A stretch of 35,992 nt of DNA, taken from NCBI GenBank assembly GCA_043805105.1, contig JAZDIG010000429.1, positions 1-35,992 of the forward strand, written 5' to 3'. This DNA is from Candidatus Glassbacteria bacterium. Its GTDB lineage: Bacteria; Gemmatimonadota; Glassbacteria; GWA2-58-10. Made by a program: the position numbers and the translations under genes. This document shows, one piece after another, positions 1,845-21,183 of this stretch. Position 1 is the first letter of the stretch. Each line of letters opens with the position of its first letter. The notes beneath the pieces were generated by a model. That model was not told where the DNA came from and searched no databases. It worked only from the letters and a program-made list of their open reading frames with translations.

Positions 1845-3761
1845 TCAGAAATAAAAGTAAGCGCCCACCGTTATTCGTCTTTGGACGGCTTCGGAATTAG
1901 GATACTCCTGCTTGTCGTTGTCCAAGAGATTATAAGCGGCCATAAATACTTCGAAATGATCCTTTTTCGGTGAGTAGCCCAATCTCCAATCTACCCGCGT
2001 GTGGCTTGCCATCGAATTAACTTCATATAACCCCAATCTGGTCGGCACATTCCAGATCGTTTTTCCGATATAAGTTGCACCTAACGTCGTTTCAAAGCAA
2101 GAGGGTAAACTTATATTCAACCTTACACTAGCTTTATTCTTTGGCGGATACTGTTTGTTTGTAATACTATAATTATTTGTCATGTGCTGGTTACTGTAAT
2201 TAGCATTTATTTTAAGCATTGACCAAGGGAGCAGTTCAAGACTTAGCTCACTACCAATTATTTTGGCACTCCCTCTGTTATGATAAGATTTCAAGATGTT
2301 AAGTGTAGGAAAATCAAATACACCTGTTGGATCGAGAAAGATGTAATCTCTGAATTTTAAACCAAATATATCTAATTCTAGTCTCACTTTTGAGCTTGGA
2401 GATAAAACATAACCTAATTCATACGAAGTGATTTTTTCCGGCGATAACTCCTTATTTCCCACAAAGTAGATCCCATTCGGAGCTGTGTAATCAATATAAG
2501 TATTCAGGTAAGTTGGATTGCGGAATGCTTTCCCAAATGAAAACCGAAAGGTGTGATCCTGACTTAGTGAATAGACCAGATTCCCCCTCGGGCTAACATT
2601 TGTTCCCACTAATGGGTGATGATCTATTCTGGCTCCTGCGGATATGGTTATTTCAGGACTTATCTTTGATTCTTCCTGAATAAAGAAGGCGGATAAATTT
2701 TGTTCATGGCTTTCGTCCAGGATGTTTGACCGGATAGTGTTTAAACGGTAAGAAGCCCCATAAACTAAAGTGTTGCTTTCCCAAAATCGGTTCATTCCTT
2801 GAGCTTCCAGATCGAAAGTATTAAAAAAGATGTCCTCAACTACACCATAAAAAAGCGGGGCTTCTTTAAAAGTGTAAGTGTTTTCTCTTTGATCGCCCCT
2901 GTTCCAAAAGGCTTGAAGGGAGTAATGCCCATGGCTAAATCTGAATTTGCTATACGTATTTGTAGCTTTAGCTTTGTTGGGAGTATTTAAAAAAATCTTG
3001 TGGACATAACCATTATTAATTCCAGCATCGAACGAAAGCCTGGTATCGGGGGAGAACTGATGTTCAACAAGAAAATTGCCGAGAACAATCTCTGAGGACT
3101 GTTCGTCATCATTTTCAAAACTATTGATTCTTTTTGCCCCTGCAGCAAAGCGGAAACCGGTATTGCCTCTGGTCCCGCCTAATAATAAGCCTGTATTAAG
3201 ACTGGAAAACTCCCCGGCTTGGACAAATACTTGCTGCTGGGTAATCTGGTTGGAGGTCTTGGTCAGGATATTGATGACTCCGCTGAAAGCGTTGGCCCCG
3301 TAAAGGGCTGAGCCAGGGCTTCGCATGATCTCAATCCTATCGATCTGGTCAATCAGGATTGGCAGGCTTTCCCAGACGGTTCCTCCGTAATAATCGATAT
3401 AAACCGACCGGCCGTCGATCATGACCAGAACGTTATTTGAAGGAACCTGGCTAAGACCCCTGATACTCACCTCGGAATGGGAAGAGGTTATAGTCATCAC
3501 TTCGAGACCAGGAACATAACGCAGGATTTCCGGGATGCTCATCGCTCCCATGGCTTTGATTTCTTTGGCAGTAATCACAGTCATGGTAGCCGGAGCCTGA
3601 TTGACACTTTGCTCAGTTCTACTGGCCGTAACTACTTTCCCAGTTTGGTGAAACAGCATTTCCTCGGTAAACTCGGCTTGGGCGGAAACTGCCCGGGCAG
3701 ATAAAGCGTAGAATATTGGGATCAGCAAGATAAAGTAGCCGGAAGTCATTTTGGGAAGCAT
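1845..3761 (-). CDS. TonB-dependent outer-membrane receptor
   Basis: Signal peptide, plug motifs VVTASRTEQ..APATMTVIT, LRYVPGLEV, VLVMIDGRSVY, IDRIEIMRSPGSALYGANAFSGVINILTK; C-terminal YNLLD...GAYFYF. Confidence 0.93.
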   Translation of the reverse strand: MLPKMTSGYFILLIPIFYALSARAVSAQAEFTEEMLFHQTGKVVTASRTEQSVNQAPATMTVITAKEIKAMGAMSIPEILRYVPGLEVMTITSSHSEVSIRGLSQVPSNNVLVMIDGRSVYIDYYGGTVWESLPILIDQIDRIEIMRSPGSALYGANAFSGVINILTKTSNQITQQQVFVQAGEFSSLNTGLLLGGTRGNTGFRFAAGAKRINSFENDDEQSSEIVLGNFLVEHQFSPDTRLSFDAGINNGYVHKIFLNTPNKAKATNTYSKFRFSHGHYSLQAFWNRGDQRENTYTFKEAPLFYGVVEDIFFNTFDLEAQGMNRFWESNTLVYGASYRLNTIRSNILDESHEQNLSAFFIQEESKISPEITISAGARIDHHPLVGTNVSPRGNLVYSLSQDHTFRFSFGKAFRNPTYLNTYIDYTAPNGIYFVGNKELSPEKITSYELGYVLSPSSKVRLELDIFGLKFRDYIFLDPTGVFDFPTLNILKSYHNRGSAKIIGSELSLELLPWSMLKINANYSNQHMTNNYSITNKQYPPKNKASVRLNISLPSCFETTLGATYIGKTIWNVPTRLGLYEVNSMASHTRVDWRLGYSPKKDHFEVFMAAYNLLDNDKQEYPNSEAVQRRITVGAYFYF

Positions 3762-10383: not shown

Positions 10384-11409
10384 TTATTGGGGCTATGTCG
10401 ATGATTCCGGTACATACTATATTTTGTGGTCTGATAATCTACCTTGGGTGTTTTTAATTAGAGACTTCACAAGCACTGGTTTCACGCTTACAGATTGCTG
10501 AACTAAGCGGTAAAAGAGTTTGCCCCTTGAGTAAGAAGTCCTGCGATTGAAACGGAATGTGAATTCGTCCAGATAGTAAGCCAGGTGTTCATGGCTGACA
10601 GCGCCTTGATAAGTACCCAGAAGCCAACGCTTCAGAAGACTGGCGACACGATGGCAATAGGGCAACAAGTTATCCCCAAGCTGGGCATCTTTCCGGATGA
10701 CCTCGTGCTTGTATCCTTTCTGTTCAAGGCGACTGTACCCAAGCCATCCATCTGTCTGGATAAGAGTGCCAGACTCCATCATCTGTTCAAGGGCTTCCTC
10801 AAGACTAGCGGCGGAGGCATCTGGTATAACAGTCAGTCGGATTCGACCGATGCGCTTGCCATCTTTCTGGGCGGCGACCAGAACCAAAGATTTTCCCTCA
10901 GCTCCGCGTCCACGCTTTCCAATTCTTTCGCCACCAATAAATGTTTCGTCAACCTGGACAATGCCCGAAAGCCGATCTCGGCCGGGACGAACCATCGCCC
11001 GCCGCAGCTTATGCAACCAAGACCAGGCGGTGCGGTAACTACCAAGTCCGAGTGTCCTTTGAACTCCAAGCGCATTTGCGCCGTACTTCTGGCTGGTGAT
11101 CTGCCATATGGCCCGAAACCAAAGAGTAAGCGGTTTCTTCGTATCTTGAAAAATAGTGCCTGCTATGACCGAGGTCACAAGCCCACAGCCTACACATTCG
11201 TAATTCCCATTGCTCCGAATCCATGCTTTCTCACTGCCACAACGCCGACAACGGAATCCCTGGGGCCACCTGAGATTGCTCAAATAATGCCGACAGGCCG
11301 CTTCCGTTCTGAACCTCTCCTCCAGTTCAAGCATCGTTTTCGGATATTCCTCCATGAGAAGGAATACTATATGTAGTAGTCACCGCAGTCAAGTGCATAG
11401 CCCCAATAA
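10384..11409 (-). mobile_element. IS1595-family insertion sequence
   Basis: Perfect 14-bp terminal inverted repeats TTATTGGGGCTATG / CATAGCCCCAATAA extending imperfectly to about 36 bp; true ends may lie a few bp inward; no target duplication seen. Confidence 0.88.
10417..11355 (-). CDS. IS1595-family DDE transposase
   Basis: N-terminal zinc ribbon (RWPQGFRCRRCG...YECVGCG), VQVDETFIGG, IQTDGWLGY, YLDEFTFRFNRR. Confidence 0.95.
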   Translation of the reverse strand: MEEYPKTMLELEERFRTEAACRHYLSNLRWPQGFRCRRCGSEKAWIRSNGNYECVGCGLVTSVIAGTIFQDTKKPLTLWFRAIWQITSQKYGANALGVQRTLGLGSYRTAWSWLHKLRRAMVRPGRDRLSGIVQVDETFIGGERIGKRGRGAEGKSLVLVAAQKDGKRIGRIRLTVIPDASAASLEEALEQMMESGTLIQTDGWLGYSRLEQKGYKHEVIRKDAQLGDNLLPYCHRVASLLKRWLLGTYQGAVSHEHLAYYLDEFTFRFNRRTSYSRGKLFYRLVQQSVSVKPVLVKSLIKNTQGRLSDHKI

Positions 11410-11476
11410 CTTAATCTTAATATAAAATAGCCCCGGAAATCAATCCGGGATTTATTATTACAGACTATGGAATAAT

Positions 11477-12493
11477 TCAGAGAGTCCGGCCCTCGGCCTT
11501 GAGTATGGGCTTGAGGGATTTAATCAGCTCGTCGAACGCATCCGGAGTCAGCGACTGCTCGCCGTCCGACAGGGCGCGCTCGGGGTCGATATGCACTTCG
11601 ATGATCGCGCCGTCCGCGCCGCAGGCGGCCGCGGCCTTGGTCATCGGCCCCACCAGGTCGGGCACTCCGGTGCCGTGGCTCGGGTCCACGATAATCGGCA
11701 GGTGGCTCAGCTTCTTGATCAGCGGCACTGCCGAAAGGTCGAGGGTGTTGCGGGTGGCGGTTTCAAAAGTGCGGATACCGCGCTCGCAGAGGATCACGTT
11801 CGGGTTGCCCTGGCTCACGATGTATTCGGCGCTCATCAGGAACTCGTTGACCGTGGCCGAAAGCCCGCGCTTCATGAGTACCGGCTTATCGATCTGGCCC
11901 ACCTGCTTGAGCAGGGCGAAGTTCTGCATGTTGCGCGCCCCGATCTGCATTACGTCGGTGTAGCGCGCCACCAGGGGGATGTCCTGCGGCGTAACCACCT
12001 CGGTCACGATCGGCAATCCCGTGGCCTCACGCGCCTGGGCCAGGAGTTCCAGCCCCTCCTCCTCCAGTCCCTGGAAGCTGTAAGGGCTGGTGCGCGGCTT
12101 GAAGGCCCCCCCGCGCAGCAGCCTGGCCCCGGCCTTTTTCACCCGCTTGGCCGTTTCGACGATCTGGTCGCGGTTCTCCACCGAACAGGGACCGGCGATT
12201 ACCACGAACTGTTCACCGCCGAAAGCGGCCTCCCCCACCCGGACGATGGTTCTTTCCTCTTTGAGCTCGCGGCTCACCAGCTTGTAAGGCTTGAGGATGG
12301 GGATGACCGATTCCACGCCGGGGACCGATTCCAGGCTTTTCAGACGGAACTTGCCCCGCTCGTCGCCGATCGCGCCGATCACCGTGCGCTGGGCGCCGTA
12401 AATGGGATGGACCTTGTAGCCCAGCTCCCGGATACGGTCGAAAACGTGGTCGATCTGCTGGCGCGTGGCGCCCTCTTGCATGACGATAATCAT
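11477..12493 (-). CDS. aroF: DAHP synthase type I-beta with N-terminal regulatory domain (downstream copy)
   Basis: [63 protein letters not shown]. Confidence 0.95.
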
Positions 12494-12542: not shown

Positions 12543-12622
12543 GTAGGGGTGGACCCCTGTGTCCACCCGTTGTTCGGAAATTTCTCGATGGTAATCGGGC
12601 GCACACTGGGGTGCGCCCCTAC
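12543..12622. repeat. GTAG-type REP doublet
   Basis: GTAGGGGTGGACCCCTGTGTCCACCCG ... CGGGCGCACACTGGGGTGCGCCCCTAC in inverted orientation; degenerate sibling at 35034-35097. Confidence 0.75.
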
Positions 12623-12678: not shown

Positions 12679-13743
12679 TCAGGAAACCTTTTCGGCGACC
12701 AGGTCGCCCACTTCGCTGGTGCTGAAGCCCATCTTGCCGGCGGCCAGGCTCTTGATTTTATTGGCGCAGGCCCACTTGACCGCCTCTTCGATGTCCCGGG
12801 CCATGGCGCTTTCGCCCAGGTCCTCGACCATCATCACGGCCGCACAGATCGCGGCCAGGGGATTGATCACTCCCTTGCCCGTGTACTTGGGCGCGCTGCC
12901 GCCGATCGGCTCGTACATCGAAACCCCCCCGGGGTTGATGTTGCCGCCGGCGGCGATCCCCATGCCGCCCTGCACCATGGCGCCCAGGTCGGTGATGATG
13001 TCGCCGAACATGTTCTCCACCACGATCACGTCGAACCACTCGGGGTTTTTCACCATCCACATGCAGGTGGCGTCCACGTGGGCGTATTCGCGCTTGATGT
13101 CCGGGTAGTCCCTGGCGCCCACCTCGTGAAACGTGCGCTCCCAGAGGTCGCTGGCATAGGTGAGCACGTTGGTTTTGGCCACCAGGGTCAGGGTCTTTTT
13201 CCGGTCGCGCTTGCGGCAGTACTCGAAGGCGTAGCGGACGCAGCGCTCCACTCCCTTGCGGGTGTTGATCGAGGTCTGGATCGCCACCTCGTCCGGGGTG
13301 CCCTTCTTGAGGTTGCCGCCCGCGCCGGCATACAGGCCCTCGGTGTTCTCCCGCACCACCACGAAGTCGATGTCTTCCGGGCCCTTGTCCTTGATCGGAG
13401 TGTGGACGCCGGGATAGAGCTGGACCGGCCGGAGGTTGATGTAGTGGTCCAGGCCGAAACGCAGGGCCAGGAGCAGGCCCTTTTCGAGGATGCCCGGCTT
13501 GACGTCGGGATGCCCGATAGCGCCCAGCAGGATCGCGTCGAATTTTTTCAGCATCGGAATTGCATCGTCCGGCAGAATGACCCCGGTCGCCTTGTAATTT
13601 TCACCGCCCCAGTTGATCTGGGTAAAATCGAACTTCACCTTATGTTTGCCGCCGGCCGCCCTCAGTACTTTCAAGGCTTCGGCCACGACTTCCGGACCGG
13701 TGCCGTCTCCCGGAATCACCGCGATCTTGTAACTGGACGCCAT
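12679..13743 (-). CDS. leuB: 3-isopropylmalate dehydrogenase
   Basis: IAVIPGDGTGPEV, INLRP, VVRENTEGLY, NMFGDIITDLGA, EPIGGSAP; leu operon context. Confidence 0.93.
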   Translation of the reverse strand: MASSYKIAVIPGDGTGPEVVAEALKVLRAAGGKHKVKFDFTQINWGGENYKATGVILPDDAIPMLKKFDAILLGAIGHPDVKPGILEKGLLLALRFGLDHYINLRPVQLYPGVHTPIKDKGPEDIDFVVVRENTEGLYAGAGGNLKKGTPDEVAIQTSINTRKGVERCVRYAFEYCRKRDRKKTLTLVAKTNVLTYASDLWERTFHEVGARDYPDIKREYAHVDATCMWMVKNPEWFDVIVVENMFGDIITDLGAMVQGGMGIAAGGNINPGGVSMYEPIGGSAPKYTGKGVINPLAAICAAVMMVEDLGESAMARDIEEAVKWACANKIKSLAAGKMGFSTSEVGDLVAEKVS

Positions 13744-13815: not shown

Positions 13816-14454
13816 TCAGCCTGTCGCCAGCCAGGAATGCTTCGCGTAATACTTCTTCTCGAACTCCTCTATCTTATCTGTGTATTGCAGGGTCCAGCCG
13901 ATCTGGTCCAGGCCGCGGACCAGGCAATCCTTGGCGAAAGCCGGAAAATCGAAACTGTAGGTTTTACCGGATGGAGTCAATACTTTCTGCGCGGGCAGGT
14001 CCACGGTCAGCTCGCAGCCTTGGTTCCCCTCGATCTCGCGGAACAGCTCCTCCACCTCGGCGCTTTTCAGCGCCACCGGCACCATGCCGTTCTGCGTGCA
14101 GTTGTTGAAAAAGATGTCGGCGAAACTGGGCGCGATGATACTGAGGAAGCCGTACTCCTTCAGGGCCCAGGGCGCGTGCTCGCGGCTCGAGCCGCAGCCG
14201 AAATTGTCGCGGGCCACCAGAATGCCCGCTCCCCGGTAGCGCGGCTGGTTGAGCACGAAGTCCGGGTTGGGCCGGGTTTCCTCGTCATCGAGGTAGCGCC
14301 AGTCGTGAAACAGATGCCGGCCGAAACCGGTCCGCTCGATCCTCTTCAGAAACTGCTTGGGGATGATCTGATCGGTGTCGACGTTCTGGCGGTCGAGGAT
14401 GGCCGCCAGGGCGGTATAACGGGCAAAAGGCTTCATTCTGTCCTCATTCGGCAA
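13816..14454 (-). CDS. leuD: 3-isopropylmalate dehydratase small subunit
   Basis: [46 protein letters not shown]; start 14454 or 14436. Confidence 0.96.
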
Positions 14455-14457
14455 ATT

Positions 14458-15855
14458 TCAGTTAATTTCACGCGGGTCGGTGAAGTGGCCGGCCAGGGCG
14501 GCCGCGGCCGCCATCAGGGGGCTCACCAGATGGGTCCGGCCGCCCTTGCCCTGGCGCCCCTCGAAGTTGCGGTTGCTGGTCGAGGCGCAGCGCTCACCGG
14601 GCTGCAGACGGTCTTCGTTCATCGCCAGGCACATCGAACAGCCTGCCTCGCGCCATTCGAAGCCGGCCTCTATGAATATCCGGTCGAGACCCTCCTGTTC
14701 GGCCTGCTGCTTGACCAGTCCGCTGCCCGGCACCACCAGCGCCTCGACGCTCCCAGCCACCTTCCTGCCCCGGACGAATTCCGCGGCCTCCCGCAGGTCC
14801 TCGATCCGGGCATTGGTGCAACTGCCGATGAACACCTTGTCGATCCGGATTTCCCGGATCGGCGTGTTGGGGGCCAGGTCCATGTATTCAAGAGCCAGTT
14901 CGGCGGCCCGGCGTTGGTTGGGATCGGCGAATTCAGCCGGGTCCGGCACGCGGCCGTCGATGTCGGTGACCATGCCGGGGCTGGTGCCCCAGGTCACCTG
15001 CGGCCGCATGGAATCGATTCCCATGTCGACCACTTTGTCGAAAGGGGCGTCCGGGTCGGAGGGCAGCTTTTTCCAGGCGCTCTTCGCGCGCTCGAATTCG
15101 CGGCCCTGTGGAGCGTAAGGCCGGCCTTCGATGTAGGTAAAGGTGGTTTCGTCCGGCGCTATCATGCCCGCCCGGGCCCCGGCCTCGATACTCATGTTGC
15201 AGAGGGTCATGCGGCCTTCCATCGACATCCGCCGCACCACCTCCCCGGCGTACTCGATCACGTAGCCGGTCCCGCCGGCGGTGCCGATCCTGCCGATAAT
15301 GGACAGGATGACGTCCTTGGGCCGTATGTTCTCCGGCACGCGGCCGTTGACCCTGATCTGCATGGATTTGGGCCGGCGCTGCTGAAGGGTCTGGGTGGCC
15401 AGCACGTGCTCGACCTCGGAGGTGCCGATCCCGAACGCCAGAGCGCCGAAAGCGCCGTGCGTGGCGGTGTGGCTGTCCCCGCAGACAATGGTCATCCCGG
15501 GCAGGGTGAGCCCCTGTTCGGGCATGGTCACGTGGATGATCCCCTGGCGCCGGTCGTCGATGTCGAACAGGGTGACTCCGAACTGGAGACAGTTGTCGCG
15601 CAGGGTTTTTACCTGCCGGGCGCTCAGCGGATCGGCGATGCCCTGGTCGCGGAAACGGGTAGGCACGTTGTGATCCGGCACGGCGAAGGTGTTCCGGGGC
15701 CGGTGCACCTTGCGCCCGGCCAGCCGCAGAGCCTCGAAGGCCTGGGGCGAAGTGACTTCGTGCACCAGGTGCCGGTCGACGTACAGGATGGTGATCCCCG
15801 CCGCTTCCGACACGACGTGCGAATCCCAGATTTTCTGAAACATGGTTTTACCCAT
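14458..15855 (-). CDS. leuC: 3-isopropylmalate dehydratase large subunit
   Basis: [57 protein letters not shown]. Confidence 0.97.
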
Positions 15856-15906: not shown

Positions 15907-17469
<1,563 letters not shown>

Positions 17470-17641
17470 TTCATGCCTCCCCGGATTTCGGGAAAAGAAA
17501 TAAAGATAATTTCAGTGTCAAATAAAGATCAGAATGAACAGCCCGGGCCTCTCCAGTCGGCCGGACGCAAGCTGGTCGTACAAAACCATCTGATCTGAAT
17601 GGCAAAATCGAACATGGCGGAAGGTCGCCTCTTGTTTGAAG

Positions 17642-18664
17642 TCAGCTCTCTCCGAGCGTTCTGCCGATTGCCCGGGCGATTATTTCGAGCTCTTTCATCA
17701 GTGTGTTGAACTGGTCCGGGTAGAGGCTCTGGGCGCCGTCGCTGACCGCTTTCGCCGGGTCGTGGTGCACCTCGATGATCAGTCCATCGGCTCCGGCGGC
17801 GATCGCCGCCCGGGCCATGGGCAGAACCTTGTCGCGGATCCCCGTCCCGTGGCTCGGGTCTGCGATCATCGGCAGATGGCTCAGCTTGTGCACCACCGGG
17901 ATGGCGCAGATGTCCATCGTGTTCCGGGTATAGGTTTCGAAGGTCCGGATGCCGCGCTCGCAGAGGATCACGTTCCGGTTGCCCCCGGAAAGGATGTACT
18001 CGGCGGCCATCAAGAGCTCCTCGATGGTAGCCGAAAGCCCCCTTTTCAAGAGTACCGGTTTGTCGATCCGGCTCAGGGCGCGCAGCAGCGTGAAGTTCTG
18101 CATGTTGCGCGCGCCCACCTGGAAGATGTCCAGAAAGGGCAGCATCGGTTCGATCTGGCTGGCGTCCATCACCTCGCTGACCACCGCCAGGCCGTGCCGG
18201 TCGGCGGCGTCCCGCATCATCTTGAGTCCCTCGACGCCCAGTCCCTGGAAACTGTAAGGGCTGGTGCGCGGCTTGAACGCGCCGCCCCTCAGGATCCGGG
18301 CGCCGCTGGCCGCCACCCGCTCGGCGATAATGTGGATCTGCTCGCTGCTCTCCACCGAACAGGGTCCGGCGGCCACCACCACCTGCCGGCCGCCGATCTC
18401 GATACCCTTTACCCGGACCACGGTGCTGGCTGGCTGGAACTGGCGGCTGGCCATCTTGTAGGGAGCGGAAATTCTCACCACCTCGGCCACGCCGTCGAGA
18501 ATTTCGAAGTCGCGGGTGTCTAAGGCGCTGGTATCGCCGATAGCGCCGATCACCGTGCGGTCGAGGCCGGTGGAACGGTGGGCGTCGAGCTTGAAGCCCT
18601 GCAGTTTTTTGATAACCGCCTGTATCTGTTCTTCGGTGGCGTCATGCGCCATGCTGATGACCAT
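17642..18664 (-). CDS. aroF: DAHP synthase type I-beta with N-terminal regulatory domain (upstream copy)
   Basis: [48 protein letters not shown]; start overlaps the chorismate mutase 3' end. Confidence 0.95.
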   Translation of the reverse strand: MVISMAHDATEEQIQAVIKKLQGFKLDAHRSTGLDRTVIGAIGDTSALDTRDFEILDGVAEVVRISAPYKMASRQFQPASTVVRVKGIEIGGRQVVVAAGPCSVESSEQIHIIAERVAASGARILRGGAFKPRTSPYSFQGLGVEGLKMMRDAADRHGLAVVSEVMDASQIEPMLPFLDIFQVGARNMQNFTLLRALSRIDKPVLLKRGLSATIEELLMAAEYILSGGNRNVILCERGIRTFETYTRNTMDICAIPVVHKLSHLPMIADPSHGTGIRDKVLPMARAAIAAGADGLIIEVHHDPAKAVSDGAQSLYPDQFNTLMKELEIIARAIGRTLGES

Positions 18665-18944
18665 CGCTCTTCCCTTCCTGCTCGGTCATTTCACGTTCGA
18701 GGCGTCTGGTTTCGTCGATAATGCGCTCGAAAAGCCTTCTGATCGCCGCATTCGACAGTGGTCCGGGATTATTCTGCTGCACGTGGTCAAAAATGAAGTC
18801 TTCCCTGTCCGGATTGTAGACCGGTGCTCCGAGTTTTTTCTTTATCAGGCCGATCTCCAGGGCGATCCTGGCCCGCTCGTTGAACATCTCGATCAGCTTT
18901 TCGTCGATCTCGTCGATCCTGACCCGCCAGTCGGAAATATCCAT
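18642..18944 (-). CDS. Chorismate mutase, AroQ type
   Basis: ISDWRVRIDEIDEKLIEMFNERARIALEIGLIKK...VYNPDRE...IRRLFERIIDETRRLE. Confidence 0.92.
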   Translation of the reverse strand: MDISDWRVRIDEIDEKLIEMFNERARIALEIGLIKKKLGAPVYNPDREDFIFDHVQQNNPGPLSNAAIRRLFERIIDETRRLEREMTEQEGKSDGHQHGA

Positions 18945-18995
18945 CGGGTGAATCCTCAGCTCGAGTCCGTGGATCCGGATTATGCACCGGATAGC

Positions 18996-19023
18996 AAAAA
19001 GCCACTATCTTGTGATAGTGGCT
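18996..19023 (-). terminator. Attenuator terminator upstream of chorismate mutase
   Basis: Minus strand AGCCACTATC-ACAA-GATAGTGGCT then TTTT; lies between the promoter and the first gene. Confidence 0.88.
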
Positions 19024-19066
19024 CGGTTTCTCGGCAAGTGCAATCTACTGTCTGCGGTGTAATCCT

Positions 19067-19076
19067 CCACTATCAC
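19067..19076 (-). promoter_or_regulatory. Antiterminator segment
   Basis: Minus strand GTGATAGTGG is perfectly complementary to CCACTATCAC (19021-19012), the 5' arm and loop of the terminator. Confidence 0.8.
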
Positions 19077-19083
19077 GCCGGCA

Positions 19084-19122
19084 TTAATTCGGAAATAGAA
19101 GGTACAAGTACAAGTAACTCAC
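19084..19122 (-). CDS. Attenuation leader peptide MSYLYLYLLFPN
   Basis: GGAG SD (19132-19129), 6 nt, GTG AGT TAC TTG TAC TTG TAC CTT CTA TTT CCG AAT TAA: 3 Tyr, 4 Leu, 1 Phe in 8 consecutive codons. Confidence 0.82.
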   Translation of the reverse strand: MSYLYLYLLFPN

Positions 19123-19178
19123 TTCACGCTCCAAACGGCTTCGAGGACACTTCAGCAGCAGATTTTCCAATTAAGCTT

Positions 19179-19207
19179 ATTTTAAGTAAACTCGTCCGTC
19201 CAGTCAA
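19179..19207 (-). promoter_or_regulatory. sigma70 promoter of the aro-leu operon
   Basis: Minus strand TTGACT-N17-TAAAAT. Confidence 0.7.
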
Positions 19208-19303
19208 GAAATTTATCGTCATTACCGGCCGCGGCCTTTAATCTGTTCCGGCCATTCCGGGTTCACAGACAAACAAAAAGCTCGAAAGCGGGCCGCTGCC
19301 GGG

Positions 19304-19798
19304 CTAAAGGGTAAACTTGCCGAAGTCCTCGGGATTCATCTTGCGCAGGGTTTCCCGCAGGACTTCCGGGTCGTATTCCTCGGTCTGGGTCACCGTTTTC
19401 GGCATGATCTTACTTGCGCTGTCCAGCAATTCCTCGCTGGTGTGGATCGGCGCTTTCATGCGCAGGGCCAGGGCGATCGAGTCGCTGGGACGCGCATCCA
19501 ACTCCAGCCGCTTGCCGTCCTGATTCAGGTAAATCCGGGCATAATAAGTATTGTCCCTGAGCTCGCTGATATACACCGATTCGAGCTGGACGCCCAGGTC
19601 CACCAGCGCCTGTTTGAACAGATCATGGGTCAACGGCCGCTTGAACTTGACGCCGGAAATCTCCATCGCAATGGCGCTCGCCTCGCTGGGACCGATCCAG
19701 ATCGGCAGAACCCGTTCGCCGTTCTTTTCCTTGAGCAGGACCACTGGTGAATTGTTTGAGCTGTCGATGCCGAGTCCGGAAATGGTCAGCTCGATCAT
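19304..19798 (-). CDS. Bifunctional nuclease family protein (DUF151)
   Basis: PVVLLKEKNGERVLPIWIGPSEASAIA, RPLTHDL, TYYARI, DARPSDSIALALR; probable ATG at 19798. Confidence 0.92.
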   Translation of the reverse strand: MIELTISGLGIDSSNNSPVVLLKEKNGERVLPIWIGPSEASAIAMEISGVKFKRPLTHDLFKQALVDLGVQLESVYISELRDNTYYARIYLNQDGKRLELDARPSDSIALALRMKAPIHTSEELLDSASKIMPKTVTQTEEYDPEVLRETLRKMNPEDFGKFTL

Positions 19799-19923
19799 GG
19801 CTTTCCCGCAATCTCTGAAAGTTAAAATCGAAAAGATGGAGTTGCGACTGCCTTTCTCCCCTACTCTCTTTGAATGTATCATCCGGCCGACAGAAATCCA
19901 AGTCCGGTACCGCGGCTTCAAGA

Positions 19924-21183
19924 TCAGGTGCCCATCGTCCAAGAGGTGAGGTACTTGACTTGTTCGGGCGTGAGCCTGTCGATACCGACTCCCATGGATT
20001 TCAGCTTCAGCTCGGCCACCCAGTTGTCGATCGAATCCGGCACTTCGTAGACCGTCGGCTCGAACTTGCCTTGGTTCTTGATCACGTATTCTGTGGTAAG
20101 GGCCTGCACGGCGAAGCTCATGTCCATCACCGATGCCGGATGCCCCTCGGCGGCCGCCAGGTTGATCAGCCGGCCCTCGCCCAGCACGAAAATCTTCCTG
20201 CCGTTTTTGAGATAGTAGGCGTCCACTTCACGGCGCACGCTCTTTTCGATCTTTTTAGAGATATTCTCCAATCCCTTGAGGTCGAGTTCGACGTTGAAAT
20301 GGCCGCTGTTGCAGACGATGGCCCCATCCTTCATCAGCAGGAAATGCTCCGGACGGACCACGTTGATATTGCCGGTGAGCGTGCAGAAGAGGTCGCCGAT
20401 CTTTGCCGCCTCCTCCATTTGCATCACCCGGAAGCCGTCCATCACCGCTTCGAGCGCCTTGATCGGGTCGACTTCGGTGACGATCACGTTGGCGCCCATG
20501 CCGCGCACCCGCATAGTGAATCCCCGGCCGCACCAGCCGTAGCCGGCGGCAACCACGTTCTTGCCGGCCAGCAGGATGTCGGTGGCGCGGATGATCCCGT
20601 CCACTGTGGACTGGCCCGTGCCGTAGCGGTTGTCGAATAAATGCTTGGTCTGGGCATCGTTGACCGCGAAGACCGGGATCTTGAGCGCCCCGTCTTTAGC
20701 CATGGCCCGCAGGCGGATTACTCCGGTGGTGGTCTCTTCCATGCTGCCCAGGATGCCGCTGATCTGCGCTGGATAATCGGAGTGGATGGTCGAAACCAGG
20801 TCGGCGCCGTCATCCATGGTCACAGTGGGCTTGTGCGCGATCGCCTTGTGGATGTGGGAATAGTAGGAGTCGTGATCTTCCCCGCGGATGGCGAACACCT
20901 GCATCTTATCGTGCTCGACCAGCGAGGCGGCGACATCATCCTGAGTGGATAGTGGGTTGGAAGCGCAAAGTACCAGGTCGGCTCCGCCGGCGATCAGAGT
21001 GCGGCAGAGGTTGGCGGTTTCGGCCGTCACGTGCAGACAGGCACTCATCCTGACACCCTTCAGCGGCCGTTCTTTGGCAAAGCGCTCCCTGACCAGCTGC
21101 AGGACCTGCATGTCGTGGTCCGCCCAGTCGATCCGCTTCTTGCCCTGGGCGGCCAGGCGGCTGTCGGCAATATGGCAATCCAT
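19924..21183 (-). CDS. ahcY: Adenosylhomocysteinase
   Basis: [71 protein letters not shown]. Confidence 0.97.

Follow-up and report, generated by a model that had tools for sequence, protein, structure and literature searches.

A candidate attenuator before an aro-leu operon

An element on the minus strand of a 35,992-nt stretch of DNA from a Candidatus Glassbacteria bacterium (contig JAZDIG010000429.1; the whole stretch is called the window below) is likely to be a classical ribosome-mediated (leader-peptide) transcription attenuator that responds to Tyr, Leu and Phe and stands over an operon of aromatic (aro) and leucine (leu) genes. It has several of the features that mark such attenuators, namely an open reading frame (ORF) with a Shine-Dalgarno sequence (SD), a cluster of control codons, an intrinsic terminator and an antiterminator that shares a strand with that terminator. 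That the attenuator is real seems to us very probable, and that its leader senses Tyr is held with only a little less confidence. Sensing of Leu is favoured with appreciably more reserve, and we lean no more than slightly towards a dependence of the leu genes on the promoter at 19207 and on the attenuator. Comparison among related genomes supports the anatomy, its conservation, covariation in the antiterminator, an amino-acid constraint on Tyr and Leu, and the gene order; from the same sequences we infer that the leader is translated, where the ribosome stands, how the switch responds to starvation and that the leu genes are co-transcribed. A dual Tyr/Leu attenuator had been proposed in an earlier note on this DNA. 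The proposal is strengthened by covariation, coding constraint and synteny, and it is complicated by a second small ORF before leuA (uORF2) and by a predicted helix of the 5' untranslated region (5'UTR).

A check of the sequence found every element of the earlier note on the minus strand, where it had been placed: the promoter, the SD, the leader peptide, the antiterminator and the terminator with its T-run (Table 1). One detail changes, as the leader MSYLYLYLLFPN, which does alternate Tyr and Leu, starts with GTG and not with ATG. Its Leu codons are TTG, TTG, CTT and CTA, and the earlier remark that they differ from the CTG and CTC of the neighbouring genes is correct. Across nine neighbouring genes (2960 codons), Leu is encoded by CTG (64%) and CTC (26%), 90% together, and otherwise by TTG (5%), CTT (4%), TTA (1%) and CTA (0.4%); TTG, CTT and CTA jointly account for about 9%, and the Leu codons of the leader are rare ones. 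The composition of the peptide is also above chance: an ORF with at least three Tyr and at least three Leu in eight residues appeared in none of 5000 dinucleotide-preserving shuffles of 18996-19178.

The switch downstream of the leader consists of three boxes. Box 2, GTGATAGTGG, is complementary at 10 of 10 positions to CCACTATCAC at 19021-19012, the part of box 3 that also serves in the 5' arm of the terminator, which bears out the perfect antiterminator pairing described earlier; box 4 is the 3' arm of the terminator. For the window genome (G000), the terminator hairpin (-17.3 kcal/mol) and the duplex of boxes 2 and 3 (2:3 duplex, -17.5 kcal/mol) use the same 10 nt. The 196-nt region folds better than its shuffles (z = -2.71), one of 200 being equally good. 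Taken alone, the promoter and terminator scans are weak evidence, because their counts in the 9-kb region match the shuffle expectation without excess (three promoter-like sites against 2.6 +/- 1.8, and eight terminator-like sites against 8.3 +/- 2.6). A search of 18000-20000 against Rfam at E <= 10 retrieved no leader family (Leu_leader, Trp_leader, Thr_leader, His_leader and others) and no T-box, the only rows being three chance miRNA-like ones; at gathering score, the whole window gave a single tRNA and no leader family.

Conservation within the class

The class of the window genome is represented in the collection searched by a single order and a single family, with 13 species genomes. A DNA search found the leader in 7 of the 12 family relatives. 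A covariance model (R1) built from eight sequences then gave exactly one full-length match per genome in all 13, with E-values from 1.8e-20 to 1.3e-5 in twelve of them and 0.058 in G005, an assembly that is 76% complete and frameshifted. R1 matched none of 138 other genomes of the phylum, the phylum tallies without a match including one unpublished genome (G056), and an exact switch pattern was present in 11 of the 13 class genomes and in none of 388 others. Several features accompany the match throughout the class: a promoter-like TTGAC-N17/18-TAnnnT at the equivalent distance, a leader ORF, and a hairpin with a T-run are each found in 13/13, and the spacer between boxes 2 and 3 measures 45-49 nt in all. 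The leader stop lies 8-10 nt 5' of the GATAGTGG core, or else the ORF extends 9-16 nt past the start of the core. The start of the ORF is clear (SD followed by GTG or ATG) in six short-type leaders, G004 and G005, and less clear in g4 (no SD) and g3 (a 50-codon ORF); the six short-type leaders from GTDB genomes have GGAG, GGGGG or GGAGG at this position.

Gene order is equally stable. Chorismate mutase (CM) follows the leader in all 12 genomes with downstream sequence checked; in the remaining one, G008, the contig ends about 400 nt past the terminator. The complete order leader, CM, first DAHP synthase (DAHPS1), leuA, leuC, leuD, leuB, second DAHP synthase (DAHPS2) is seen in 9 of the 13 genomes. 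In G011, G002 and G008 the series is truncated by contig ends, and in G004 a contig break falls between DAHPS1 and leuA; no other order was seen in any of the 13. The G005 locus (L131, G005:C6:142000-154000) shows apparent frameshifts in DAHPS1, leuA, leuC, leuB and DAHPS2, visible as split tblastn rows, and its leader and uORF2 readings are unreliable for this reason. A search of genome contigs with DAHPS1 retrieved 80 distant loci of other phyla (at most 69% identity), mostly from metagenome-assembled genomes (MAGs) of Acidobacteriota. CM lies directly 5' of the DAHP synthase in 48 of them, and leu genes occur in the fetched flanks of none, which indicates that, among the loci examined, the aro-leu fusion is particular to the class.

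The leader peptides themselves vary widely in length, from 10 to 50 residues. The window and its short-type relatives have MSYLYLYLLFPN, MFYLYLYLLFPT, MYYLYLYLLFPA, MLYLYLLFPI, MCYLYWYLFIPG and MFYLYLYLFIPG; three leaders of 23-25 residues contain ..ELYIYYFLFSD.., ..QLLYYYYLLFSD.. and ..ELYLYLLFSD..; two of 50 residues contain ..WYRYLYLYFAGC.. and ..LFRFLYLYYAEC..; and the remaining ones are MWGLFITLLRYRLFRDVPCLIVR (G004) and MCGYLLILLPYRLPHCRSVDQ. Length differences between genomes amount to whole codons, that is, to in-frame insertions or deletions. Codon usage was compared among eight leaders of twelve codons, five of them from genomes and three being metagenome variants, with L183 left out. 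At codons 3-8 (Y L Y L Y L), they show 84 synonymous and 7 non-synonymous pairwise differences, counted over pairs that are not independent. The codon for Leu4 is TTG in five and CTT in three, that for Leu8 is CTT in four, CTG in two, CTC in one and TTG in one, and the Tyr codons switch between TAC and TAT. Leu and Tyr are thus kept while their codons drift, which points to a constraint on the amino acid or its tRNA rather than on the RNA sequence; judged by these substitutions, Tyr and Leu positions alike are under coding constraint. All the compared leaders have Pro at codon 11, encoded by CCA, CCC or CCG; by analogy with other leaders, a Pro near the stop may slow release.

The pairing of boxes 2 and 3 is conserved as well. 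In an alignment of the 13 sequences, 88.5% of the 130 antiterminator cells are paired, compared with 28.7-50% when the partner is slid. Two pairs covary: pair 53-123 of the alignment is U-A in nine sequences and A-U in three, and pair 52-124 is U-A in five, G-C in one (the window) and U-G in one. Since the 3' partners of both sit in the terminator loop, this covariation is specific to the antiterminator. Predicted stabilities across the class range from -11.2 to -20.8 kcal/mol for the 2:3 duplex and from -11.1 to -17.0 kcal/mol for the terminator. The earlier note had looked to orthologous leaders for a conserved ORF, retained Tyr and Leu codons and covariation, and the alignment provides all of these, with the residues kept through synonymous change.

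Relatives of the switch core in metagenomes

Metagenome contigs scanned with a pattern of the switch core yielded at least 79 loci, ten of which reach E <= 0.001 with R1: eight of the same class, L179, and L205, whose contig stops before any gene. The eight same-class loci have an identical gene order as far as their contigs extend; one of them, L218, shares 95-99% protein identity with the window and differs in the leader by a synonymous TAC to TAT change. The other 69 loci contain 78 pattern matches, and in 13 of these a T-run of at least four follows. None of the 13 has CM, DAHP synthase or leu genes downstream, and three of them (L194, L201 and L222) are trpE attenuators.

L179, L194, L201 and L222 share one layout: a GATAGTGG box, a spacer, a CCACTATC-loop-GATAGTGG hairpin, a T-run, and an aromatic-rich leader ORF. 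With the window and the 12 other class genomes, these four relatives make up the set that carries the switch core (box 2, a spacer of about 45-60 nt, box 3-loop-box 4 and a T-run). The L179 element (L179:7325-7454 (-), GC 37%) has three matching boxes and a T9 run, and its leader MKQIYSHNFKFTNQTVLKYYYRYYYYFSYIDSGKNPFKYI is 40 residues long with 10 Tyr and 1 Leu. It precedes an eight-gene Tyr/shikimate operon of CM, DAHP synthase, prephenate dehydrogenase with an ACT domain, EPSP synthase (aroA), shikimate dehydrogenase (aroE), shikimate kinase (aroK), dehydroquinate synthase (aroB) and dehydroquinase (aroQ). The other three cores (L194:157-394 (+), L201:2185-2433 (-) and L222:879-1119 (-)) stand before anthranilate synthase component I, with Trp/Tyr leaders containing ..CYYRYWWWFKTTDSG.., ..CYWGYWYYYAYKADSG.. 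and ..SYGWWYYAHISDSG.., respectively. The leaders of these relatives run through box 2 in the frame GAT AGT GG (Asp-Ser-Gly), and L179, L194 and L201 have no match in Rfam.

The constancy of the core outside the class follows by construction, because the search pattern fixes it; the link of the relatives with aromatic operons and aromatic-rich leaders was not dictated by the pattern. In L179, L194, L201 and L222, there is no Leu among the codons just before box 2 and there are no leu genes downstream. Interleaved Leu near box 2 therefore occurs solely at loci with leu genes downstream, and this supports the idea of the earlier note that the sensed residues match the downstream products. The window element belongs to a broader and apparently undescribed family of aromatic attenuators.

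Other recurring hairpins and leaders came up in the same searches. A hairpin (A)ACCACTATCTAAAGATAGTGGATTTTTTT recurs in L157, L161, L171, L188 and L206, which belong to one metagenome assembly, and in L182; L157 has two copies of it less than 1 kb apart and a TGATAGTG box upstream. No CM, DAHP synthase or leu genes lie downstream at these loci. Besides the trpE attenuators, three recurring hairpin types were viewed at one locus each (L157, L182 and L185). A leader scan of the 48 distant CM-DAHP synthase loci flagged five (L061, L062, L083, L081 and L085). The M.WWW.. leaders of L061, L062 and L083 were rejected by eye as out-of-frame readings of the end of an upstream gene, with a motif that may be TrpA-like. 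In L085 (about 3085-3220 (+), a KSB1 MAG contig), the CM and DAHP synthase genes are preceded by a leader, MFAVNWFSGFYFYYFFAERRRDVG, with a GCCCACTG..AGTGGGC hairpin and a T9 run behind it; this looks like a separate attenuator, non-homologous to the window switch.

A second small ORF before leuA

The spacer of 172 nt between DAHPS1 and leuA holds a second small ORF, uORF2, which encodes MFDFAIQIRWFCTTSLRPADWRGPGCSF and begins 26 nt after the DAHPS1 stop in the window. Its first 16 residues, MF(D/E)(F/L)AI.I(R/K)W(F/Y)STTSL, precede leuA in every class genome with that sequence; variation falls mostly at third codon positions, and the tail and the position of the stop vary. A 17-position profile of uORF2 matched 11 of the 13 class genomes, the misses being a contig end and the frameshifted assembly; among 188 further genomes of the phylum it gave just two weak matches (E 0.005 and 0.01). 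In G004, uORF2 stays beside leuA across the contig break. The peptide is not Leu-rich, having one conserved Leu, usually encoded by the rare TTG. Its conservation before leuA makes a distinct checkpoint for the leu genes probable, and uORF2 may act on the leu segment as a regulatory peptide in its own right, one that is sequence-specific. In G002, a terminator-like GC hairpin with a T-run was seen by eye after DAHPS1.

A small hairpin adjoins the leuA SD at 17470-17500 (-), with equivalents in L028, L029, L033 and L034. Compared by eye, its pairing is kept while its sequence differs (CCCG..CGGG in the window, CCAU..AUGG in G006 and CUGGGA..UCUCAG in G007).

Proposed mechanism

Transcription would start about 50 nt 5' of the 12-codon leader ORF. 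With charged Tyr-, Leu- and Phe-tRNAs, the ribosome would reach the stop, 7 nt before box 2, or in some genera pass through box 2 within a longer leader ORF. A ribosome at the stop would leave box 2 masked or re-paired, boxes 3 and 4 would form the terminator, and transcription would end near 18996. A ribosome stalled on Tyr, Leu or Phe codons would leave box 2 free to pair with box 3 before box 4 is made, giving read-through into CM and DAHPS1 and probably on into leuA, leuC, leuD, leuB and DAHPS2. The best stall sites are probably codons 7-10 (TAC CTT CTA TTT), which overlap candidate region 1. The leader would act as an OR gate, opened by a shortage of Tyr (or Phe) or of Leu, an arrangement that is sensible if the leu genes lack a promoter of their own, and uORF2 would probably add a leu-specific checkpoint.

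A wider scenario, which we put forward tentatively and regard as rather doubtful, has two checkpoints in series, Leu codons gained on capture of leuACDB, uORF2 as a regulatory peptide of a new kind, and a portable chassis. If it were true, the first of the two leaders would be an OR gate for a shortage of Tyr/Phe or of Leu, its Leu codons having been acquired when leuACDB was captured behind a Tyr-type attenuator-CM-DAHP synthase module, and uORF2 (MF.FAI.IRW[FY]STTSL) would let transcription or translation proceed to the leu genes only under a demand for leucine. The GAUAGUGG switch would then be a portable chassis in which leader codons are re-written with operon content: Trp/Tyr before trpE, Tyr before tyrA-aro, and Tyr/Leu before aro-leu.

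Weighing the attenuator against other explanations

A number of observations weigh against a Tyr/Leu attenuator, and several come from folding. The earlier note expected mutually exclusive structures, and the 2:3 duplex and the terminator (3:4) do share a strand; however, the nested fold of G000 lacks the antiterminator. For the transcript up to box 3, the lowest nested fold has -40.9 kcal/mol, compared with -35.0 kcal/mol when 2:3 is enforced. It pairs the 5'UTR (19164-19142) with the spacer (19066-19040), out-competing the antiterminator by 5.9 kcal/mol in a predicted helix that encloses the entire leader ORF. Across the class, the antiterminator is part of the minimum-energy fold in 4 of 13 genomes (G001, G010, G008 and G004), and enforcing it costs 1.9-14.1 kcal/mol in eight others, G005 being left out. 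The hairpin of region 1 with box 2 (1:2) is weak in G000 (-8.1 kcal/mol), and in several genomes the predicted competitor of the antiterminator is a 5'UTR segment and not region 1. With a gap of 7-9 nt and the usual ribosome footprint, a ribosome that has come to the stop would cover no more than the margin of box 2. Moreover, the 8-nt core of all three boxes is invariant in the class, which leaves most pairs uninformative on structure: the eight core pairs, never varying, carry no structural information.

The 5'UTR helix may be accommodated in two ways. According to the predicted folds, it could act as an anti-antiterminator that makes untranslated transcripts terminate; alternatively, it could form alongside 2:3 as an H-type pseudoknot partner, which is conceivable because the order of the strands is that of such a pseudoknot. 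Equilibrium folding of G000 with ribosome masks never formed the antiterminator, with or without box 4; in our view, this modelling failure shows the limits of nested equilibrium folding and is not evidence against an attenuator. RNAalifold, applied to six full leaders, returned only the terminator and an SD-leader helix, without covariation, because the 5'UTRs align poorly. Pairings similar to the 5'UTR helix are predicted in the G007, G011, G006 and g4 genomes.

The leaders and the operon supply further points on the same side. The G004 leader MWGLFITLLRYRLFRDVPCLIVR has one Tyr only, and that of G005, in the assembly that carries frameshifts, is without any Tyr/Leu alternation. The comparison set without leu genes is small (one CM-DAHP synthase locus and three trpE loci) and was obtained with a pattern that fixes the core. 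Tyr codons are abundant in the trpE-linked leaders too, which indicates that leader composition is no strict read-out of operon products and that codons and products correspond only loosely. Given uORF2 and the G002 hairpin, the leu genes could be controlled or transcribed separately.

Such separate control is part of an explanation in which the element is a Tyr (Phe) switch for CM and DAHPS1, the Leu codons are filler or serve RNA pairing, with region 1 mimicking CCACUAUC, and leuACDB are controlled separately through uORF2 and an unrecognised promoter. We consider it unlikely. It accounts for a chassis common to purely aromatic operons, for a conserved uORF2 before leuA wherever sequence is available, for the overlap of CUU CUA UUU with the candidate 1:2 pairing, and for the hairpin after DAHPS1 in G002. 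However, Leu is kept despite codon changes of up to two bases (TTG/CTT/CTG/CTC/TTA), which fits an amino-acid or tRNA constraint, it is interleaved with Tyr only in the lineage with leu genes downstream, and the leader uses rare Leu codons. The promoter scan also shows no promoter-like site before leuA, and the gap between the DAHPS1 stop and uORF2 measures just 26 nt in the window.

The conservation of the leader at the amino-acid level, including the invariant Pro at codon 11 although Pro is no product of the operon, could also be read as a nascent-peptide arrest, in which YLYLYLLFP stalls the ribosome through exit-tunnel contacts, perhaps with a small-molecule cofactor, and not through tRNA scarcity. 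The order and number of Tyr, Leu and Phe vary between genera (YLYWYLFI, LYIYYFLF, LLYYYYLLF, LFRFLYLYY), which fits composition sensing better than a fixed arrest peptide, and leaders of 10 to 50 residues speak against arrest as well; we regard it as very improbable. At least as improbable in our estimation is that a protein or other trans factor binds the invariant GAUAGUGG / CCACUAUC hairpin or a DNA palindrome, with the ORF secondary. A core that does not vary in three boxes across 13 genomes and recurs in distant contigs (there by construction of the search pattern) would suit such a factor, but a three-way pairing constraint alone explains slow change of the core. The flanks covary as RNA pairs, a T-run follows the hairpin in 13/13, the ORF shows coding constraint, and the single copy per genome provides no regulon. 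We retain the leader-peptide attenuator as the preferred reading.

Comparison with described systems

To our knowledge, described leader attenuation comes almost entirely from proteobacteria, actinobacteria and a few other groups, and concerns single or linked pathways. The thrL (Thr, Ile) and ilvL (Leu, Val, Ile) leaders of enterobacteria have mixed codons, any shortage relieving termination; the pathways are linked there, whereas the window mixes aromatic and branched-chain codons, matching a composite operon. Calvo and co-workers reportedly described rare CUA codons as Leu control codons in leuL of Salmonella and Escherichia coli. Rare Leu codons are likewise found in the window leader, but leuL has four consecutive Leu codons and the window alternates Leu with Tyr. 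In pheL and trpL of E. coli, the stop codon lies near region 2. These leaders sense one amino acid, while the window has codons from two unrelated pathways; its 1:2 element is weak and a 5'UTR helix is predicted instead.

Attenuation at pheL/pheA and trpL/trp resembles the window element in the leader ORF, the control codons for the product amino acid and the alternative 2:3 and 3:4 helices (PMC11802643). By function, the closest described system is the Phe-Tyr-Phe leader aroR, which precedes the aroF DAHP synthase operon in Corynebacterium glutamicum (PMC11802643 and PMC4046766, citing Neshat et al. 2014). Both are short leaders with aromatic codons before a DAHP synthase operon, and stalling of the ribosome on aroR raises transcription (PMC11802643, PMC4046766); the likeness is functional only. 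The aroR leader has three aromatic codons and no Leu run, whereas the window leader has three Tyr, four Leu and one Phe and is followed by leu genes, and aroR responded to Phe limitation, not to Tyr (PMC11802643). Joint control of leucine (leuCD) and tryptophan/aromatic genes is exerted in C. glutamicum by LtbR, which is a DNA-binding repressor and not an RNA/ribosome switch (PMC11802643). An older claim of Tyr-tRNA-dependent control concerns aroF-tyrA of E. coli (cited in PMC2659441), and the available part of the actinobacterial surveys gives leaders for trp, cys, ilv and leu and none for Tyr (PMC1262725).

The earlier note knew of no leader that joins aromatic and branched-chain codons, and none was found in the literature searched, many subscription papers lying outside it and supplements being unopened. 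An aromatic leader before a DAHP synthase operon is already known from aroR; only the aromatic-plus-leucine combination is new. The window thus offers a conserved switch without an Rfam family, for which no description was found in the literature searched (again with many subscription papers outside it), and a cross-pathway leader whose codons from two unrelated pathways match a composite aro-leu operon. Other codon sets stand before other operons in the relatives that share the RNA chassis, a clean natural example of codon content following operon content, and the system is simple enough to ask whether one leader integrates two unrelated amino acids. A further regulatory peptide, of a less conventional kind, may be encoded by uORF2. 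In genome annotation, the element shows where an eight-gene operon begins in this uncultured class.

The downstream operon and neighbouring features

Searches against Pfam and NCBIfam identified the products named in the earlier note, chorismate mutase, DAHP synthase and LeuACDB (Table 1). The DAHPS1 gene overlaps the end of the CM gene, and the two DAHP synthase kinds are 52-56% identical (tblastn). No promoter-like site was found in the minus-strand scan from the leader promoter to the end of DAHPS2. Between the attenuator and the hairpin that follows DAHPS2, the scan gave a single terminator-like site, a weak one of 5 bp within leuD; the hairpin itself is the likely end of the operon.

Table 1. 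Features of the attenuator and of the aro-leu operon in the window
Feature	Coordinates	Strand	Basis or remark
Promoter-like site TTGACT-N17-TAAAAT	19179..19207	-	10/12 matches in promoter scan
5'UTR strand of predicted long-range helix	19142..19164	-	in minimum-free-energy folds; pairs with 19066-19040
Shine-Dalgarno GGAG	19129..19132	-	6 nt 5' of GTG start
Leader ORF GTG..TAA, MSYLYLYLLFPN, 12 codons	19084..19122	-	3 Tyr, 4 Leu, 1 Phe in 11 codons
Candidate region 1, CCUUCUAUU, codons 7-10, could pair with box 2	19094..19102	-	weak, inferred
Box 2, antiterminator 5' strand, GTGATAGTGG	19067..19076	-	begins 7 nt past leader stop
Spacer segment pairing with 5'UTR in nested folds	19040..19066	-	folding
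Box 3, shared strand (terminator 5' arm and antiterminator 3' strand), CCACTATCAC at 19021-19012	19012..19024	-	
Terminator stem, 11 pairs, loop ACAA	18999..19024	-	terminator scan; T-run to 18996
Box 4, terminator 3' arm GATAGTGGCTT and T5 run 19000-18996	18996..19009	-	terminator scan
Chorismate mutase (CM_2)	18642..18944	-	Pfam/NCBIfam; TIGR01807, 71.3 bits vs cut-off 69.55
DAHP synthase 1 (DAHPS1), N-terminal ferredoxin-like domain	17642..18664	-	NF006421, 489.6 bits vs 335
uORF2, MFDFAIQIRWFCTTSLRPADWRGPGCSF	17529..17615	-	small ORF before leuA; first 16 residues conserved across class
leuA, 2-isopropylmalate synthase	15907..17469	-	NF002086, 769.9 vs 532 bits; TIGR00973, 694.2 vs 598.7
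leuC	14458..15855	-	Pfam, NCBIfam
leuD	13816..14454	-	Pfam, NCBIfam
leuB	12679..13743	-	NF002898, 525.3 bits vs 393
DAHP synthase 2 (DAHPS2), DAHPS1 paralogue	11477..12493	-	Pfam, NCBIfam, tblastn
Terminator-like hairpin 3' of DAHPS2	11431..11450	-	terminator scan

Upstream of the element lie a gene with a bifunctional-nuclease domain and one for S-adenosylhomocysteine hydrolase. An ORF of 241 codons runs antisense to the leader and the CM gene (18516-19241 (+)); it has no Pfam match and is probably spurious. A crude genome-wide scan of G000 listed 96 leader-attenuator candidates, and the 10 inspected were gene ends or had an implausible context, the scan being too crude to prove absence. An extra copy of the hairpin in G000, with one mismatch, sits inside a 626-codon ORF and was rejected as chance.

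The spacer between leuB and DAHPS2 contains a REP-like inverted repeat (GTAGGGGCGCAC..., ...GGTCCACCCCTAC) at about 12543-12622 (-). Since just 36 nt separate the matched ends of leuB and DAHPS2 in the near-identical contig L218, this element looks recently inserted. Just 3' of the operon, an IS1595-family transposase gene (DDE_Tnp_IS1595 with a zinc ribbon, 10417-11355 (-)) has its own promoter-like site at 11392-11364.

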